From: Candidatus Omnitrophota bacterium | Lineage (GTDB): Bacteria; Omnitrophota; Gorgyraeia; Gygaellales; Profunditerraquicolaceae | Length of the DNA stretch: 64,000 bases | Direction of reading: 5' to 3' | Assembly: GCA_018825985.1 (NCBI GenBank) | Contig: JAHKAP010000018.1 | Location: 4,134 to 68,133, forward strand | Shown: piece by piece, positions 10,751 through 35,627 of the stretch | Position numbering within the stretch: the stretch's first letter is position 1 | Layout of the letters: every line of letters starts with the position of its first letter | The notes under the pieces: generated by a model | Databases searched by the model: none | Told to the model about the DNA's origin: nothing | The model's input: only the letters and a program-made list of their open reading frames with translations | Translations under genes and position numbers: made by a program

Positions 10751-10796
10751 AGAAAAAACAAGGGACACCCTCGCAGCTAAAGCTAAGGGTGTCCCT
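10751..10796 (-). terminator. intrinsic terminator of the giant gene, formed by a GGGACACCC/GGGTGTCCC hairpin plus a U-run on the minus strand
   Basis: A 9-10 bp GC-rich stem (10762-10796) is followed on the minus strand by UUGUUUUUU, directly downstream of the stop at 10816. The same hairpin family recurs at 47417-47501. Confidence 0.55.
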
Positions 10797-10815: not shown

Positions 10816-13800
10816 TTAACTTATCGAATCAACGATAACCAGAGCTTCCCTAAGTTCAGCCGAGCTTTCCAACGCGCTCTCTTCTTCCAGCTTACAGATA
10901 TCTATCAGACAGAGTAAGAGATTGTCAACCTGGGCATTGATCTCTTTCTTCTGGCAACAGGCAGCGATCAACTCTTTAAGCCTGTCACCTGAAGGTATAT
11001 TCCCGGCTTTAACCATATTCCTGATCTGCTCTATCTCAGAAGTAATATTGATCTGCCTTAACTGCTCCTGGCTTAAAACGGGCAAGCTGAAATTCAATCC
11101 CTTAAAACTTCCCGTAGGTTGAATGGTCATGGGTAGGGAGCGTAAGTCGATACCGCCGGTAGTTTCAGGAGCTGATTGAACCGGAGAACTACCTGTACCT
11201 TTGCCTTTAAGCTCAACAGATAGAACCTCGCCCTCCGATGACTTACCTAACAAAATCCTAAAACGTCCATCGCGATCTAACTTAGCAACTACCTGTAACA
11301 AACCACCCTTACTTATAGTATCCGGAGATATCTGGGAATTAACCAGCACGAGTAAGTTCGGCAAAATAAAGTATTCCGTAGCATCGCTCATTATATTTTT
11401 GCCAAAGTGTTCATCAAGAAACTTAGCTACTTTATCCCATGTAGCCGTTGATACATCCACCGGCGAAGCGGCGGAAACTATTACCCGCGTGACATCCGGG
11501 GTATTAAGATCAATACCTGTTTCTACATCAATGATGCGGTTAGTGGTCTCTTCTTCTGCGTCCTTACGCACCAGCTTATCCCTGCCCCATACACTTGCAA
11601 TTATACCTATTCCGATTTTCTCAATTCGCTTTTCAATATCTTGAATGTATAGATGCGCGCTGCGCGTAGGCACATCCCTGCCGTCAGCGGCAAAATGGAT
11701 TACAAATTGGTCTTTTCTTAAGTCTAATTTCTTGGCTAATCTCATCAATGCATACATATGATAAAGTGAAGAATGCACTCCGCCTTCAGAAGCAATGGTT
11801 ATATAATGGAACCTCAAATCATTCTCTTTAACCCTTTGCAATTCTTTTACCAAAACCTGAACCTCGGGCATACTTTCATCAAAGATGCCATCGCGAATAC
11901 CGCCCTTAACCAGCCTATCTACATACCACAAGGGTTGTTTATATTCTCTTAACGCAAACATGGCAAAATGGCCAACATCTGTCTGGCCTGCTTGCAAACC
12001 TCTTAAATGGTGCCTGCCTTCTTCCCAAGATAACTCTTTCCTTAACCCAATCACTTCTCCGTGCGCCTGTAGCTGAGTAAAACCACAGGCATTCTTGACC
12101 AACCAGTCATAATTGGGGGTATTGGCGAGCTTGATAGCGTCCCATTCGTAATTCTGGTCGGGATTTATACCCCAGCCATCCAAAACAGCCATCGCGATCC
12201 TGCGTTTACTTCCCTGATAATCATCAGGCAGCAAGCTCGGGTCGGATCCTTCGGGGATATCTTCTCCCAATAGATGTAATAACGTAGCCCCGTTGTTTCT
12301 AATAGTTTGCCCAGACTTTAAGGTTAATTTCCGGGTTCTTAAAGGATCATAAATAATATACGGTACTGGATTTGCAGTATGGAAAGTATCGGATTCCTTA
12401 GGATTTTCTGTCAGCCCAGCTTCTGAAGCGCCATGATCGGCAGTGATAACAAAGATTGGTATCCTTGCTTCAAAACCATTTATCCTCGAATAAAGTATCT
12501 GATTTATTTCTTTTAATCGGATCAAGAAACTATCATAATCAGTTAATAACAAGTTATCGAGAATAATCCGCGCTCTTTCATCTAGTGGATAAGAAGAAAC
12601 CTCTTCTCTTATTTTCTTAATAAACTGTCTTTTTATGCTATCGATCTTTTCTTTTATCCTTCCGATCTGCTGGTCGGTTATTTCATTGGCCTGTTTAGCT
12701 GACTTAAAGTTTCCGGTATGTTTCATCATATCTGAACCAAGTAAGTTCACCAGAATAAAATCTATAGTATCGTCATCCAATCCTCTCAATACCTCATCGG
12801 TACATTCTTTGGTTTTCATCTGGGGCGTATCTGCATAGGCCTTTTTAGATTTCTGCATTTCTATATTAATCCGCTTTTCTCCGGGATAAGGCCCATCTGT
12901 TTTCTTGCCATCTGCATTATTACCAACATGATCCTTCTTTTCGTTCTCAGAAATCTTAAGCACTTTATACATTTTGTTGGACAATATCTCGAAAAAGGTA
13001 TTAGGCACTTTAGCAATTACCTCATCAGACAAAACACTCTTGCCTTGATAATCATTACTAAATTTGATGTATCCCAATAATTTCTTAAAACCCCTGCTCC
13101 ACAGGCCTCTGGCAAAATATCCGGCCCGGTCACCCCTGACGTGCCCGACCATAACTGAATCTTCCGGCGATATAGGATGCAGCGGCTTACCGTTTTCGTC
13201 AGTAACAACAGTAAACTTTAGTACTTGCTCATTTACATCTTCCTCCAACAGGCTTTGCTCCTGTTCAACTGCCTTAGCTAAATCTGAAATTATCGGCGAG
13301 CCGGCAGCGCTTTTACTTTTTTCGCTATCAAGATGCTTCTTTATTTTATCGCGGGCATCAACAACTTTTCCAATTAACCGGTATCTTTTTTCCTTTTCCT
13401 TATTCAGCTCATCTATTTTTATATTCAATATTTCTAAAGTTTCTTCATTAAGATAGAACCTTAATGTAATAGCTGCGTCTATGGCTACTAAATCGTTTGA
13501 ACTATTGAGTCTTTCTATTAACTCTTTTAAATCATTAAATAAACTTTGGCTGGGGAAAACACCATTTTTATATAACACCTCAAGATTCCTCTCCATAGTT
13601 AAAATAATATTGATATTCGGATTTTCTTTTTTAACCTCCGCTTGCAGCGTTGTAAGATAATTATCAGCATCTTTTGTTTCTGTAACAATTGCCGAAACTA
13701 AACTTGTAACCGCTGAGCCGGCTGCGGTAACTGGCAAGCTAGAGGCGGCGTCAAAAAACGCCCTGGCCCGGCTAAAAATGCGGATAGCGGTTAACATCCC

Positions 13801-15669
13801 GGTAGGAGTTGAAATATCCGGCAACACCATAATCGCAGCGTTTGCCAATAATTTAAATTTTGATTCACAGTTTAGTAAATTACCGGCCTTATCTAAAGTC
13901 GTTGCAAAATTAACTAAAAGCGTAAAAGAGCCGGTAGTAGAATCTTCTTCCCCGGGAGATTTAACCGTGTATCCCTTTTCTTTTAAAACATTGCTTAAAA
14001 TAATAACCCTGGGATTATCGGAATAAAGTATGCTCAAAAGCTGATTTTTTTTCAACACCATAAGCGTAGCCAGCCTTTGAGCTGCAATTTCAGCAAGGCC
14101 ATTAAGCGATTCTTCTTTCCCGAAATCTTTGATCAAATAATATCTTCCATCGGCAATTTCACTCAGCAACCTCTTTTCATCATAATAAGAACTTCTTGGA
14201 TGCCTGATTAGGTTTTCCCTAAGCACCCTGTTAACACTATCTGTCGCCGAATATAATAATGATCTACTCGCGGTATCCGACAAAATACCCTTACCGTTTA
14301 AAACTACTCCTTTTAATAGATCAATATATGGTCCTGACCGGGCTTGCCGTTCAATCCTGTTATGGGCCTCCATTAAATCGTATTCTCTGCGATAATCAGG
14401 CATACCTTTAGTCGTTATCGGAGAAGCGGATATTTTTATTCCCCTCAAAGAATCGCCATCTGCTACTATTCCGGTATTAAAGATATTTGGATTAATCGGC
14501 CTGCCAATAAAACTATTCGGGTTATTTATAGGACTTCCGGCTTCTCTGCCCATATTAATCCCCCCGCTAAAATAGCTTCTGATCATCTGGCCGGTAGGGG
14601 TGTAGACAGGTTCCTTGACATTGTATTCGCCTTCCGCAAAGGATTTTTGGTAAAGTTTAAAGTAATCTGTCTTGGACCAGGCATCTTTGGAGATAAGGTT
14701 GGTCAGGTTTTTGGTTTCTATAAGAGCTGTAAAAGCAGGGACAGCCCCCTTTAAAGTACTTTCAGATACCCTGGACGGGGACAGTCCCTTGAATCTTTGT
14801 TTAAACCAGCGAGAGAGAATTAATGAATAGTATACCTGGCGAAAATTAGCGTATCTTCTGGAAGAATTTACTTCTTTGGTCAGCTTAGGAATGATCAATT
14901 CACGGATAAGCCCTGAGGAGTATTCGTTTAAAGCTTTGGAGCGTTCATCTTTAAATTGGTAAACTGAATTATTCGCAATAACAGGATTAGTCGAATTAGC
15001 CAGGTAATCTGATTCAAGCATTACCTTTAAAGTGGCTTTGTAGATATAAGCTGAATCTTCGGCTTCTCTTAAAATGATCTCACCCGGGACTATCCAGGGA
15101 CGAGTCAGGGTAGGTATATTTACGGATTCATAGCCATAAAGCTCTTCGGCTTTCTGGTAAAGCTTAGTCCAGTATTCTTTTCCTTCCGGAGTGTTAGGCG
15201 AGGTAAAAAGAGCAGTATCTTTTTTAAGCTGAAGATCGGTCTCCAGCATGATCTTGCCCACATCGGTCTTTTCCAGATACTGGTCTATGATCTGGTCTTC
15301 AGAATCAGGCCGTAGATTAACCCAAAACATGCTATCTGGAAGGGTTACACCTATTAGGAAATAATTTAAAAGGGTTTGGGTTTTGTCTTTTAAGGCTTCT
15401 TCCGGGATTTCTTCACCTTTACCTATACCTTTGCCTTCAATACCTCTGCTTAATTCATCCCCTTTATCCACCAGGAGCTTAAAACTGTTATTTAGTGAAT
15501 CATAGGAGAAATACCTTAAGTGTATCGGCCGGAACTTATCCTGAACTATATTAGAACCAAACCTGGAAAGATAATTTGCCAGGTTAAGTTCTAAGGCTAC
15601 CTGGGCAAAACTAACCTGCTGGAATAATAAGCCGAAACTTAAGACCAAAGATAAGATTTTACGGGCCAT
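10816..15669 (-). CDS. giant (1617 aa) signal-peptide protein with a duplicated, rearranged iPGM/phosphopentomutase-like alkaline-phosphatase-superfamily module at its C-terminus
   Basis: Likely start at the ATG at 15669 (MARKILSLVLSFGLLFQQVSFAQ, a signal peptide) with AGGAG 8 nt upstream; the track ORF starts 44 codons earlier. The C-terminal ~650 aa carry, in this order, VVTDENG...DSVMVGHVRGDRAG, DFILVNLLGSDMMKHTGN, ITADHG, HTANPVP, then LDGWG, QTDVGH, GGVHSS, AADGRD, IASVWGRD. The N-terminal ~900 aa match nothing I recognise. Confidence 0.7.
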   Translation of the reverse strand: MARKILSLVLSFGLLFQQVSFAQVALELNLANYLSRFGSNIVQDKFRPIHLRYFSYDSLNNSFKLLVDKGDELSRGIEGKGIGKGEEIPEEALKDKTQTLLNYFLIGVTLPDSMFWVNLRPDSEDQIIDQYLEKTDVGKIMLETDLQLKKDTALFTSPNTPEGKEYWTKLYQKAEELYGYESVNIPTLTRPWIVPGEIILREAEDSAYIYKATLKVMLESDYLANSTNPVIANNSVYQFKDERSKALNEYSSGLIRELIIPKLTKEVNSSRRYANFRQVYYSLILSRWFKQRFKGLSPSRVSESTLKGAVPAFTALIETKNLTNLISKDAWSKTDYFKLYQKSFAEGEYNVKEPVYTPTGQMIRSYFSGGINMGREAGSPINNPNSFIGRPINPNIFNTGIVADGDSLRGIKISASPITTKGMPDYRREYDLMEAHNRIERQARSGPYIDLLKGVVLNGKGILSDTASRSLLYSATDSVNRVLRENLIRHPRSSYYDEKRLLSEIADGRYYLIKDFGKEESLNGLAEIAAQRLATLMVLKKNQLLSILYSDNPRVIILSNVLKEKGYTVKSPGEEDSTTGSFTLLVNFATTLDKAGNLLNCESKFKLLANAAIMVLPDISTPTGMLTAIRIFSRARAFFDAASSLPVTAAGSAVTSLVSAIVTETKDADNYLTTLQAEVKKENPNINIILTMERNLEVLYKNGVFPSQSLFNDLKELIERLNSSNDLVAIDAAITLRFYLNEETLEILNIKIDELNKEKEKRYRLIGKVVDARDKIKKHLDSEKSKSAAGSPIISDLAKAVEQEQSLLEEDVNEQVLKFTVVTDENGKPLHPISPEDSVMVGHVRGDRAGYFARGLWSRGFKKLLGYIKFSNDYQGKSVLSDEVIAKVPNTFFEILSNKMYKVLKISENEKKDHVGNNADGKKTDGPYPGEKRINIEMQKSKKAYADTPQMKTKECTDEVLRGLDDDTIDFILVNLLGSDMMKHTGNFKSAKQANEITDQQIGRIKEKIDSIKRQFIKKIREEVSSYPLDERARIILDNLLLTDYDSFLIRLKEINQILYSRINGFEARIPIFVITADHGASEAGLTENPKESDTFHTANPVPYIIYDPLRTRKLTLKSGQTIRNNGATLLHLLGEDIPEGSDPSLLPDDYQGSKRRIAMAVLDGWGINPDQNYEWDAIKLANTPNYDWLVKNACGFTQLQAHGEVIGLRKELSWEEGRHHLRGLQAGQTDVGHFAMFALREYKQPLWYVDRLVKGGIRDGIFDESMPEVQVLVKELQRVKENDLRFHYITIASEGGVHSSLYHMYALMRLAKKLDLRKDQFVIHFAADGRDVPTRSAHLYIQDIEKRIEKIGIGIIASVWGRDKLVRKDAEEETTNRIIDVETGIDLNTPDVTRVIVSAASPVDVSTATWDKVAKFLDEHFGKNIMSDATEYFILPNLLVLVNSQISPDTISKGGLLQVVAKLDRDGRFRILLGKSSEGEVLSVELKGKGTGSSPVQSAPETTGGIDLRSLPMTIQPTGSFKGLNFSLPVLSQEQLRQINITSEIEQIRNMVKAGNIPSGDRLKELIAACCQKKEINAQVDNLLLCLIDICKLEEESALESSAELREALVIVDSIS

Positions 15670-15773
15670 TCTACGTCTCCTATGTTTATCCGCCACAAAG
15701 TCGCCACATCGATAGGCGACCCGCTTTCTGTATGGCGGGCCTAACGGATTATTTGCCTGACAAGATAGAAAGC

Positions 15774-15825
15774 AAATAAAAAACCGCAAAGCCAGACCCA
15801 AATGATTTGTTCCGTGGCAATGCGG
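15774..15825 (-). terminator. intrinsic terminator/attenuator hairpin plus U-run in the intergenic leader between pilD and the giant gene
   Basis: On the minus strand, CCGCAUUGCCAC...GUCUGGCUUUGCGG (imperfect 12-bp stem) is followed by UUUUUUAUUU. It lies 240 nt downstream of the pilD stop and about 105 nt upstream of the giant-gene ATG. Confidence 0.45.
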
Positions 15826-15899
15826 TTTAAATTAAACCGATTTTCGCGCCTTCGCACCTCCATACGAAAACGCTTTTTAATCTTAAAAATCTACATTAA

Positions 15900-15928
15900 A
15901 TATAGCATAAAAACGTCTATTTTTCAAG
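15900..15928 (-). promoter_or_regulatory. candidate sigma-70-type promoter (TTGAAA, 17 nt spacer, TATATT) reading toward the giant gene
   Basis: Seen on the minus strand. It would give a roughly 230-nt leader that contains the terminator at 15774-15825. Confidence 0.3.
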
Positions 15929-20898: not shown

Positions 20899-22323
20899 CT
20901 ATACTAAGTTTATAAATATCTCGGTAGTCTTTGGGTCATAACGGATACCGCTGTATTTTTTTAATTCCTCTTTTGCCTCGCTAAAACTTAAACCTTTACG
21001 GTAAGGCCTGTCGGTGGTCATGGCGTCAAAAGAATCCGCGATAGAAAGGATCCTGGCGCCCATAGGTATCTCATCCCCCTTTAAGCCATCCGGGTAACCT
21101 GTGCCGTCAAGCGACTCATGGTGGTACCTGATTATACTGCACAGCCTTGAAAGAGACCTTATCGGCTTAACGATACCTTCGCCGATCACCGGATGCCCGC
21201 GCATTACCCGGGCCTCATCCTCATTTAAAAAAGTTGGTTTTCTTAAAATATCGTCACTTATCCCGATTTTACCTACATCATGAAGAAGGGCTGCGTCTTT
21301 TAAGGATTTGATAAAATCCTGGTCCAGCCCCAATTCTTTAGCGATCTTAACCGAATAGTCAGCCACCCTGTCCGAATGGCCGCGGCTATATAGATCACGG
21401 GCCTCAACTGCCATAGCTAAAGCGGAGATTGTCTCCAGATATGTCTTTTCGGCATCGATATTTAACCTTTCATTTTCCACCGCTACAGCTGTCTGGGTAG
21501 CTAAATTAGAGATAATTATTAATTCATCTTCCTGAAAATTACCCGGGATTATCTTACCCGCTACCGCCAAGACCCCAACGATTTTATCTTTATACAACAT
21601 TGGCGCGCACAACAAAGGCGGAGCAAAAGGATCTTCACCCGAACGTTCACCCGTTTTATTGACATCGGGAACCAACAATGGTTTTTTATTTTTCGCTGCC
21701 CATCCCGGGCCTTCTTCGCCTATTTTTAATCTTAAAGAGCTAAAGACACTGCCTATCCCGGCCGAAGCTTTAATATATAACTCCTGTTTTGCATCATCAA
21801 CAAGCATTAATGCTCCGGTCTTAGCGTCCAAGGCATTTGTGGTTACCTCAATGATCAATTCTAAAAAAGTATCGATGTTTTTAGAATTGGATATCCCGGC
21901 GGCAAGCTTGGTCAAGACATCCTGTATTGTCCGCTTTGATGCCTCCAGACGCTTAATATTCTCCTCCAGATTCTTGGTAATTTCATTAAAGGTTTTGGCT
22001 AACTGAGTTATTTCGCTTTCATCATCTTTAACCTCACCCAAAACAGAAATACCCCCCCCTAATGAACCCCTAGTTTTTCTGGACAATTCCTGGATCTTTT
22101 TTATAGAACTGCGCATACTAAAAAAACCGATCATAGAACCGATCCCGATAAGAAATATGATCCTTATTAATACTCCATGACTGATATTAATTGTATCCGA
22201 GTTATTGGACCGGATCAGTAAAAAAGTAACTACTAAAAAAGGTAAAATCGACATTACAAAGAACAATACCGAGAACTTTCGGATTATAGAAGAATCTCTT
22301 ATTGAAGTTAGTTTAAGCGCCAT
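20899..22323 (-). CDS. membrane sensor HD-GYP c-di-GMP phosphodiesterase (2 TM, HAMP-like linker, GAF domain, HD-GYP domain)
   Basis: LHDVGK and HHESLDGTGYP motifs of HD-GYP, a GAF-like central region and two N-terminal hydrophobic helices. Sits between ilvB and ilvN with 16-nt and 6-nt gaps. Confidence 0.8.
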   Translation of the reverse strand: MALKLTSIRDSSIIRKFSVLFFVMSILPFLVVTFLLIRSNNSDTINISHGVLIRIIFLIGIGSMIGFFSMRSSIKKIQELSRKTRGSLGGGISVLGEVKDDESEITQLAKTFNEITKNLEENIKRLEASKRTIQDVLTKLAAGISNSKNIDTFLELIIEVTTNALDAKTGALMLVDDAKQELYIKASAGIGSVFSSLRLKIGEEGPGWAAKNKKPLLVPDVNKTGERSGEDPFAPPLLCAPMLYKDKIVGVLAVAGKIIPGNFQEDELIIISNLATQTAVAVENERLNIDAEKTYLETISALAMAVEARDLYSRGHSDRVADYSVKIAKELGLDQDFIKSLKDAALLHDVGKIGISDDILRKPTFLNEDEARVMRGHPVIGEGIVKPIRSLSRLCSIIRYHHESLDGTGYPDGLKGDEIPMGARILSIADSFDAMTTDRPYRKGLSFSEAKEELKKYSGIRYDPKTTEIFINLV

Positions 22324-35308: not shown

Positions 35309-35381
<73 letters not shown>

Positions 35382-35414
35382 CGTCGCTCGCTATATGTTT
35401 TTTCCATATAATAG

Positions 35415-35496
35415 TGCGGACGAAGGGATTTGAACCCCCAAGGGTTGCCCCAATAGCTCCTAAGGCTATCGCGTATGCCAATTCCGCCACGTCCGC
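35415..35496 (-). tRNA. tRNA-Leu (UAG), type II with a long variable arm
   Basis: GCGGACG acceptor, AUAGC-CUUAGGA-GCUAU anticodon arm, long variable arm GGGGCAACCC, UUCAAAU T-loop. Confidence 0.85.
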
Positions 35497-35554
35497 AGAG
35501 CTTTTTCCCTTTTACCGCTTCGCTCTTGACTATTAACTTTTGATTCTGAATTTA

Positions 35555-35627
35555 TGAGCCTCCCGCGGATCGAACGCGGCACAGCCACATTAAAAGTGTG
35601 GTGCTCTACCAGATGAGCTAGAGGCCC
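35555..35627 (-). tRNA. tRNA-Lys (UUU)
   Basis: GGGCCUC acceptor, CCACA-CUUUUAA-UGUGG anticodon arm, GUUCGAUC T-loop. Confidence 0.85.

Follow-up and report, generated by a model that had tools for sequence, protein, structure and literature searches.

The DNA analysed here is a 64,000-nt stretch of a Candidatus Omnitrophota genome (GenBank assembly GCA_018825985.1, contig JAHKAP010000018.1, positions 4,134 to 68,133; hereafter the window), whose minus strand carries, at 10816-15669, a gene for a 1617-amino-acid protein. We found that this protein holds a circularly permuted cofactor-independent phosphoglycerate mutase (iPGM) module between an N-terminal and a C-terminal domain that, by sequence comparison, define a very large, unannotated, Omnitrophota-specific family. 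Taken together, this architecture, the permutation and the family membership are assigned with very high confidence. As the initial annotation of the locus had stated, the open reading frame (ORF) is the largest in the window, the second largest encoding 848 aa. It is uninterrupted: its longest reading spans 10816-15801, and the ATG at 15669, which gives the 1617-aa product, is preceded by an AGGAG Shine-Dalgarno sequence 7 nt to its 5' side and corresponds to the start methionine of the homologues. Gene calls on 8 contigs from separate assemblies (GCA_018824565.1, GCA_043800815.1, Logan SRR27458547) give one gene with an identical product, each time with the same neighbours and between pilD and trxA, and a partial NCBI protein labelled Candidatus Omnitrophica is 100% identical to it. 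A frameshift, which the initial annotation had named as a finding that would overturn its reading, or a chimera is excluded because this identical single gene was called on 8 independent contigs; the layout of N-domain, permuted iPGM and C-domain also recurs in other metagenome-assembled genomes (P0002, P0003, P0004). The chance that two or more adjacent genes were fused here through a sequencing or assembly error is negligible.

The features of the gene and its immediate surroundings are listed below in the direction of transcription. "Punctuation motif" denotes a recurrent pentapeptide, A-[SGA]-S-[PA]-[VILM], that separates the modules, and pLDDT is the per-residue confidence of the AlphaFold model.

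15670..15927, minus strand: promoter-like site (TTGAAA-17-TATATT with TG) and 231-nt structured leader, from consensus matches.
10816..15669, minus strand: complete coding sequence, one gene, 1617 aa plus stop codon, from ORF and translation.
15604..15669, minus strand: aa 1-22, signal/anchor segment, MARK / ILSLVLSFGLLF / QQVSFA, likely cut between SFA and QV, from sequence, hydropathy and family N-termini.
14542..15603, minus strand: aa 23-376, N-domain ("head"), with the invariant motifs FWVNLRPD (aa 115-122) and RPWIVPGE, ending in YFSGGI.
14419..14541, minus strand: aa 377-417, disordered linker (pLDDT <50 over aa 367-420) with two punctuation motifs, AGSPI (377-381) and SASPI (414-418).
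13726..14418, minus strand: aa 418-648, module A, function unassigned, no Pfam match, relatives in P0005 and P0041.
13708..13725, minus strand: aa 649-654, AAGSAV, variant punctuation motif inside an Ala/Ser/Val-rich stretch.
13309..13707, minus strand: aa 655-787, module B, function unassigned, no Pfam match, helical by sequence character only.
13291..13308, minus strand: aa 788-793, AAGSPI, punctuation motif just before the iPGM, from motif position.
12220..13272, minus strand: aa 800-1150, first half of the permuted iPGM, canonical residues ~213-511, from HMMER alignment to 1EJJ and the un-permuted alignment.
11473..12219, minus strand: aa 1151-1399, second half of the permuted iPGM, canonical residues 1-~212, from HMMER and TIGR01307 profile positions 2-182.
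11458..11472, minus strand: aa 1400-1404, AASPV, punctuation motif just after the iPGM, from motif position.
11191..11457, minus strand: aa 1405-1493, module C, small, function unassigned, no Pfam match above noise and no local relative.
11179..11193, minus strand: aa 1493-1497, GSSPV, punctuation motif before the C-domain, from motif position.
10819..11175, minus strand: aa 1499-1617, C-domain ("tail"), beginning GGIDLRSLPMTIQPTGSF..., a helical bundle ending in ...ELREALVIVDSIS.
10758..10774, minus strand: intrinsic-terminator-like hairpin with T-run, 42 nt past the stop codon.

The initial annotation had recognised signatures of an iPGM-type enzyme of the alkaline phosphatase (AP) superfamily, and profile searches bear this out: PF01676 matched with an E value of 1e-30 (107.5 bits; gathering cut-off 24.3), PF06415 with an E value of 6e-29 (101.6 bits; gathering cut-off 27), and iPGM sequences from the PDB with an E value of 1e-40. 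The module occupies residues ~793-1399, and not 970-1617 as first proposed; residues 1400-1617 are not iPGM. HMMER alignment to 1EJJ placed residues 814-1008 on positions 230-431, residues 1068-1139 on 434-500 and residues 1154-1370 on 2-192. The canonical order of phosphatase N-part, transferase domain and phosphatase C-part is thus broken: aa 800-1150 cover the second part of the transferase domain and the C-part of the phosphatase domain, and aa 1151-1399 cover the phosphatase N-part and the first part of the transferase domain. The break lies near TIGR01307 profile position 212/213, and almost no linker separates the original C-terminus from the original N-terminus (aa ~1140-1155). When the two halves were swapped in silico, the module aligned end to end with canonical iPGMs. 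Because each segment is present exactly once with the order swapped, the halves are dissimilar (best E value 0.97 over 14 aa) and the protein contains no internal repeat, we conclude from the alignments that the module is one circularly permuted iPGM, in single copy and without duplication.

This conclusion upholds the non-canonical order and the Thr nucleophile (GQTDVGH, T1230) reported in the initial annotation and replaces the model built on them, in which a complete phosphatase-type core would be followed by a second N-part and a transferase domain. The resemblance that speaks for that model lies at the level of motifs only, "DSVMVGH" being superficially like a nucleophile motif. The segment read there as an N-part with a Ser nucleophile (VVTDENG...GHVRGDRAG; DSVMVGHVRGDRAG) aligns to 1EJJ ~235-265, and its VRGDR falls on FRPDR, a substrate-binding motif of the transferase domain. 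The 1EJJ alignments, the un-permuted alignment and the half-versus-half comparison together refute the duplication model, which we consider hardly credible.

Most of the catalytic machinery is preserved in the permuted module. The residue numbers and roles used here are those that we take, from its literature, to apply to the G. stearothermophilus enzyme 1EJJ. The first half carries VRGDR (R261/R264), ENEKK (K336), SDMMKH (D403/H407), ADHG (D444/H445) and HTANPVP (H462), and the second half carries LDGWG (D12), GQTDVGH (T1230 at the Ser62 position, and H66), GGVHS (H123), DGRD (R153/D154) and WGRDKLVRK (R185, with R191 replaced by Lys). In the alignment, all six metal ligands (D12, D403, H407, D444, H445, H462) and eight of the nine substrate residues (H66, H123, R153, D154, R185, R261, R264, K336) are kept, such that 14 of the 16 mapped ligand and substrate positions are identical; the exceptions are Ser62 to Thr (T1230), in place of the canonical nucleophile, and Arg191 to Lys. 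Two AP-superfamily relatives, phosphopentomutase and nucleotide pyrophosphatase/phosphodiesterase (NPP), have a bimetal core in which a Thr carries the phosphoryl group; therefore, a Thr at the Ser62 position is compatible with catalysis. The module differs from these enzymes in that it matched phosphopentomutase models only weakly (E 0.09) and in its transferase domain and substrate residues, which are those of iPGM.

Compared with GpmI (1EJJ), then, the module shares both Pfam domains, the six metal ligands other than the nucleophile and the eight identical substrate residues. It differs in the permutation, which puts its termini near canonical position ~212, in the Thr nucleophile and R191K, in two clade-specific inserts of ~21 and ~57 aa (the latter helical, at 1008-1066 in the first half), in being embedded in a 1617-aa signal-bearing carrier, and in its score against the NCBIfam equivalog model TIGR01307, which at 215.6 bits for the whole protein and 221.8 for the module alone does not reach the cut-off of 330.65. 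As judged by sequence, it is an iPGM relative that departs from the canonical enzyme in three features (equivalog score, segment order and Ser nucleophile) and keeps the rest of the catalytic machinery, and we regard it as probably catalytically competent.

A search with the module alone recovered signal-less, stand-alone proteins (P0124-P0129; 606-635 aa) from metagenomes, in an Omnitrophota-like context. These are 44-51% identical to the module over 95-98% of its length, in contrast to 25-36% for canonical iPGMs, and share with it the permutation, the Thr and Lys substitutions and both inserts; they contain no signal, N-domain, C-domain or punctuation motif. One of them lies among ordinary biosynthetic genes on a 223-kb contig, and they are presumably the cytoplasmic phosphoglycerate mutases (PGMs) of their carrier organisms. 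The substitutions S62 to T and R191 to K are fixed in fused and stand-alone members alike; the Thr, which the initial annotation took as the mark of a second copy, is a property of the whole clade, signal-less enzymes included. Because members of the clade score 192-222 bits (192-208 for the stand-alone proteins) against the TIGR01307 cut-off, they appear at NCBI as "hypothetical protein". By these sequence comparisons, the module belongs to a clade of permuted, Thr-nucleophile iPGMs whose named members are Omnitrophota. In three further proteins (P0121-P0123) the same Thr-type permuted iPGM stands directly behind a hydrophobic, signal-like N-terminus of its own, without the N-domain. The literature searched contained no paper on a permuted iPGM, and the stand-alone Thr-type form is undescribed there.

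A second group of permuted iPGM-like proteins (525-555 aa) has a Ser nucleophile, D154 replaced by Ser and no GGVHS, and is more canonical-looking. One of its members, P0186 (526 aa, GNSEAGH, D154 to S, without GGVHS; L001:8001-9581, GCA_964476915.1, contig CAYZCO010000002.1), belongs to a sugar operon that also encodes a LacI regulator, two HAD hydrolases, two PRK-family kinases, an ApgM-type mutase, a SIS/RpiR regulator and an ABC sugar transporter; it is unlikely to be a glycolytic PGM. P0225, a relative of P0186, carries the label Eubacteriales. In a rough neighbour-joining tree, the permuted iPGMs fall into 4 groups that are not united; they may have arisen once or by repeated permutation at a permissive loop.

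The ~800 residues before and ~220 after the module, which the initial annotation left as unrecognised sequence, contain the N- and C-domains of the family. Among the 120 best full-length matches, every one with a source name is labelled Omnitrophota. All have the first ~375 residues (55-80% identity) and the final ~115 in common, and their middles are unrelated; the N-domain was found in 118-120 and the C-domain in ~113 of them. The 1617-aa protein displays both marks of the family: a signal-like segment plus N-domain (FWVNLRPD etc.; aa 1-376) at 55-80% identity to other members, and a C-terminal domain that begins GGID[FL]R (aa 1499-1617). Searched alone, the N-domain matched 7317 clusters at 50% identity among 1.84 billion representatives, 4496 of them at E<=1e-30, always at the N-terminus of proteins of ~400 to 7391 aa. 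In GTDB species genomes it marks 415 loci, almost all named Omnitrophota, with up to 6 loci per assembly among the best 79 of the 415. Only 2 matches were found in 2.9 million viral contigs, and a phage or mobile origin of the family was rejected on this count. The identities of the N- and C-domains are correlated across 194 proteins (r = 0.67), with differing cargo, and near cargo-less members exist.

Neither end domain resembles a described family. Pfam and NCBIfam held no match for the N-domain, the C-domain or modules A, B and C; a profile of the N- plus C-domain against PDB sequences returned coiled-coil noise only; and the alpha/beta fold of the N-domain had no match among PDB folds. In the full-length AlphaFold2 (AF2) model of the short family member P0016, the C-domain consists of short strands and five helices (pLDDT >90; overall pTM, the global model score, 0.48). 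The Cys residues of the C-domain, which we looked at as a conserved disulphide and thus a sign of export, are 64-69% conserved. Among the modules, module A is 31% identical over 230 aa to residues 608-832 of P0005 in local BLAST, also matches P0041, and recurs in these family members at other positions. Module B was matched, among the compared proteins, only by the identical P0001. A large-database homologue search with aa 418-790 (13300-14418, minus strand) missed even the 100% identical P0001, which local BLAST recovered, and the negatives of that search are to be taken with caution.

Two further observations concern the ends of the carriers. The N-domain closes on an invariant S-G-G-I (YFSGGI, aa 366-371, nt ~14557-14574) followed by a disordered linker, and the C-domain opens, after a disordered linker, on a near-invariant G-G-I-D-F/L-R (GGIDLR, aa 1505-1510, nt ~11140-11157); speculatively, these could be equivalent strands for the same binding groove. 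Four members (P0312, 7391 aa; P0333, 6439 aa; P0315; P0293) span thousands of residues with the same N- and C-domains and form a subtype with an F-E-Q-S-G-F-A-Q N-terminus, a longer C-terminal tail (...LLESGKP...) and fewer motifs per length, which suggests a gradual transition from the carrier family to the Omnitrophota giant proteins.

The modules of these proteins are set apart by the punctuation motif. We counted 297 pentapeptides in the family versus 7.5 +/- 2.5 in shuffled sequences, a ~40-fold enrichment, and a density of 1.2-1.5 per 1000 aa versus 0.05 in 780 non-family proteins encoded nearby in the same genomes, a ~25-fold difference. The motif lies in segments that AlphaFold leaves disordered. 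In the 1617-aa protein, six sites including variants (377, 414, 649, 788, 1400, 1493) form the boundaries between the N-domain, modules A and B, the iPGM, module C and the C-domain; similarly, motifs at 379 and 829 of P0112 bracket a complete PGK (residues 393-808, profile positions 5-379 of 379). Before the C-domain, S-S-P-[VLI] is kept family-wide (alignment columns 772-774: S83, P65, V/L/I). We infer that it marks a site of processing or of modification, or serves as a hinge.

The cargo between head and tail was assessed from precomputed Pfam labels of the 120 best relatives, about half of which carry enzymes of central carbon metabolism. These include PGK (12), PGM/PMM (11), iPGM or ApgM (8), cupin-type GPI (7), enolase (5), parts of PEP synthase/PPDK (4), GAPDH (3), TPI (2) and FBA (1), and consecutive pathway steps occur fused to each other: GAPDH with PGK, PGK with enolase, and PGM/PMM with FBA and TPI, the last in P0059. 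Other members carry guanylate and adenylate kinases, HPr kinase, NUDIX, methyltransferases, DnaJ or receiver domains, HEAT and TPR repeats, and many modules without a Pfam match. By its sequence, the 1617-aa gene contributes the PGM to a set of carriers that spans lower glycolysis. Carrier genes can also stand in tandem: L051:3988-8889 (FBPase_3, PF01950) is followed by L051:8978-16204 (PGK plus enolase), and a tandem pair is present in L026 as well.

The N-terminus of the 1617-aa protein matches, by inspection, the n-h-c pattern of a Sec signal that the initial annotation had seen in it, with a positive n-region (MARK), a 12-residue h-region (ILSLVLSFGLLF) and small residues at -3/-1 (S-F-A before Q); it is the only part of the protein in which a 19-residue Kyte-Doolittle window exceeds 1.6. 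All family members begin with such a segment, and its c-region, F-Q-Q-x-G/S-F-A-Q, is nearly invariant (invariant columns Q18, A22 and F16/Q17/F21/Q23). In the AF2 model, aa 2-27 form one helix that runs across the putative cleavage site and is joined to the core by a low-confidence link. The claim that this is not an ordinary cytoplasmic glycolytic mutase is supported. Two other ways in which the protein could relate to membranes were rejected. The internal hydrophobic stretch (aa 641-662), singled out earlier as a possible membrane segment, reaches a window maximum of 1.56, under the 1.6 threshold, and was found only in the identical P0001 among the sequences compared. A pilin-type substrate of PilD is not indicated either: G13 is unconserved (homologues have S or C), position +5 is not Glu, and the adjacency to pilD is not conserved.

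We lean towards the view that the gene encodes an exported or envelope-tethered, catalytically competent mutase module within a modular carrier protein. The module would be a working metal-dependent phosphomutase, most likely interconverting 3-phosphoglycerate and 2-phosphoglycerate via a phospho-Thr intermediate, and the N-terminal segment would send the polypeptide through Sec, an assignment made because of its positive n-region, 12-residue h-region and S-F-A at -3 to -1, and because no other window is strongly hydrophobic. P0121-P0123, with the same permuted iPGM behind a signal-like N-terminus of their own, also argue for export. The N- and C-domains could then serve the whole family as shared handles, by which every member is docked or retained at a single envelope structure or partner, and such docking would set the mutase beside carriers that bring GAPDH, PGK, enolase and PEP synthase/PPDK-type domains. 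A bolder form of this proposal, which we consider quite unlikely, is that the carriers are a dedicated envelope display or secretion system for extracytoplasmic glycolysis in ultra-small, probably host-dependent Omnitrophota. It would run through GAPDH, PGK, permuted iPGM, enolase and PEP synthase/PPDK-type enzymes, with FBA, TPI, GPI and PGM; the two handles would couple these enzymes head-to-tail or attach them to a common scaffold, and metabolites from the cytosol of prey or host would be processed.

Several observations weigh against an exported, active mutase. Much of the cargo is of types that need ATP, NAD or S-adenosylmethionine (SAM), namely PGK, GAPDH, kinases, methyltransferases, DnaJ and receiver domains, and these cofactors are not expected outside the cytoplasmic membrane. 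The module stays below the iPGM equivalog cut-off (222 versus 330.65 bits), and its clade-specific inserts and R191K mean that the substrate could differ from phosphoglycerate. The near-invariant c-region is atypical of Sec signals and may instead be a specific anchor or interaction helix; the fold of the N-domain gave no functional lead; and across 79 family loci no gene, be it for a transporter, a protease or another operon partner, was conserved as a neighbour. Location is deduced from the N-terminus and is at odds with the cytoplasmic type of the cargo, and for an extracytoplasmic location as such we regard the case as evenly balanced. Because so much of the family cargo needs ATP, NAD or SAM, both a cytoplasmic tether and processing of a polyprotein are kept as live rivals.

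The tether has an appreciable, though clearly minority, chance of being correct. In that event, an uncleaved N-terminal helix together with the N-domain would anchor the protein to the membrane's inner face or within a complex, and the family would be a membrane-tethered cytoplasmic metabolon, glycolytic or regulatory, with the 1617-aa gene as its PGM step. Passages of the preprint by West-Roberts et al. caution that an overlooked transmembrane (TM) segment could give a wrong localisation. The cargo is overwhelmingly cytoplasmic and nucleotide-dependent, consecutive glycolytic enzymes are fused as expected for channelling, F-Q-Q-x-G-F-A-Q resembles a specific interaction helix more than a generic signal, and the AF2 model runs one continuous helix across the putative cleavage site. 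However, the hydrophobic segment is preceded by R and K and followed by an acidic residue, which by the positive-inside rule places the body of the protein outside; the strictly hydrophobic core is just 12 residues long and, with S-F-A at -3 to -1, fits the classical cleavable pattern; and related organisms already have signal-less stand-alone permuted iPGMs, presumably cytoplasmic.

Processing of a polyprotein, which fits either location and is compatible with the other readings, strikes us as rather unlikely. Here the punctuation motifs would be protease sites at which the carrier is cut after translocation or assembly, freeing the permuted iPGM and the other modules. Such sites would be well served by a short, sharply defined motif that sits exactly at module borders, in disordered linkers, ~40-fold over chance, and that flanks both the iPGM (788-793 and 1400-1404) and the PGK of P0112. 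Yet the fourth motif position is Pro in 57% of sites, which is unfit for cleavage of the signal-peptidase-I type after position 3; the motif equally resembles Ala/Ser/Pro-rich bacterial O-glycosylation sites or a simple hinge; and no protease was seen in the protein (Pfam) or as a conserved neighbour (79 loci). Cleavage after translation has been proposed for Omnitrophota giant proteins in preprints, on other grounds. A non-catalytic role, in which the enzyme folds would moonlight in a surface coat as modules for structure, adhesion or ligand binding, we judge improbable. Many members hold only repeats (HEAT, TPR) or unassigned modules, some carry nearly no cargo, and Omnitrophota giant proteins are generally read as adhesion or coat proteins. 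Against this, the mapped metal ligands and substrate residues are the same in fused and stand-alone copies at 44-70% overall identity, the cargo domains are complete, and the cargo set rebuilds contiguous steps of a pathway.

In outline, the carriers recall several secreted systems. TpsA exoproteins, LapA-type giant adhesins and cargo of the type IX secretion system (T9SS) have a conserved N-terminal recognition or retention domain and/or a C-terminal sorting domain, and share with the carriers their large, variable size, conserved end domains and many paralogues with swapped passengers. In contrast to these systems, the carrier N-domain is alpha/beta without a PDB match and the C-domain is helical, not a beta-barrel or beta-sandwich; no partner transporter gene lies beside the family genes, and the passengers are enzymes of central metabolism. 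The TPS domain (PF05860) has no match in the 1617-aa protein, whose flanks are pilD and trxA with no conserved neighbour, and no RTX or T9SS C-terminal domain family matches it either.

The closest relatives in concept come from the same phylum. Long multi-enzyme Omnitrophota proteins are already known from two preprints (West-Roberts et al. 2023; 10.64898/2026.06.07.730766), and the 1617-aa protein belongs with them. According to passages of these preprints, giant proteins of Omnitrophota contain glycolytic domains (TPI, GPI, FBPase, PGM/PMM, FBA, PPDK) in predicted extracellular parts, and the same passages meet the contradiction between cofactors and location for TPI, GPI, FBPase, PGM and FBA domains and leave it open. 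With the Archaeovorins, or very long multi-enzyme proteins, as those passages describe them, the carrier shares the phylum, a signal or TM start, HEAT repeats and sugar-metabolism domains; enzyme domains of this kind in a predicted extracytoplasmic part are found here too, and the N- and C-domains of the 1617-aa carrier occur as well in proteins as long as 7391 aa. It differs in being 10-90 times shorter and in having a single hydrophobic segment, rather than tens of thousands of residues and numerous TM segments. The N-domain, the C-domain, the punctuation motif and the permuted iPGM are undescribed in the searched passages of the preprints, and the fixed head and tail, the motif and the permuted Thr-type iPGM, including its stand-alone form, are absent from the literature searched.

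These findings bear on three matters. A central glycolytic enzyme occurs here as a natural circular permutant that has a Thr nucleophile, belongs to a clade with stand-alone enzymes and falls below an annotation cut-off; if other annotation pipelines miss the clade too, the PGM step could look missing in metabolic reconstructions of Omnitrophota. The same permutant offers a clean case for how a two-domain AP-superfamily enzyme tolerates new termini. The very large unannotated family (at least 7,000 clusters), with its fixed head, fixed tail and punctuation motif, supplies domain boundaries, which published work on Omnitrophota giant proteins explicitly says are lacking, as well as candidate processing sites. 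Finally, export-type starts combined with ATP- and NAD-dependent cargo pose a direct question of where these uncultured nanobacteria run glycolysis.

At the locus itself, the gene stands directly downstream of pilD (PF06750 plus PF01478), as the initial annotation had reported, and directly upstream of trxA, in a same-strand row of aroE, pilD, the 1617-aa gene, trxA, pta, panD, def, trxB and GTP-PEPCK. The pilD adjacency is peculiar to this locus and is not kept among the 79 family loci. The promoter-like site lies at 15899-15927, and the 231-nt leader (15670-15900, minus strand) folds better than shuffled sequences (z = -3.64); within it, a hairpin is followed by UUUUUUAUUU, a U-run, ~110 nt before the start codon. 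The structured leader of its own that had been proposed for the gene thus stands, and the attenuator assigned to it is a possibility, as an Rfam search of the leader found no riboswitch or known leader family. The proposed terminator corresponds to the hairpin at 10758-10774.

Elsewhere in the window, a cluster of three tRNA genes lies at 35310-35627 (minus strand; Rfam RF00005, 56-70 bits). At 20899-22323 (minus strand), between ilvN-like and ilvB-like genes in a row of branched-chain amino-acid genes, a 474-aa protein is encoded that has an N-terminal membrane segment and an HD-GYP-like motif, HHESLDGTGYP. Across 1-64000, the minus strand encodes every ORF with a recognisable product, GC skew stays negative over 8-19 kb, and the whole window forms one co-directional block of housekeeping genes.

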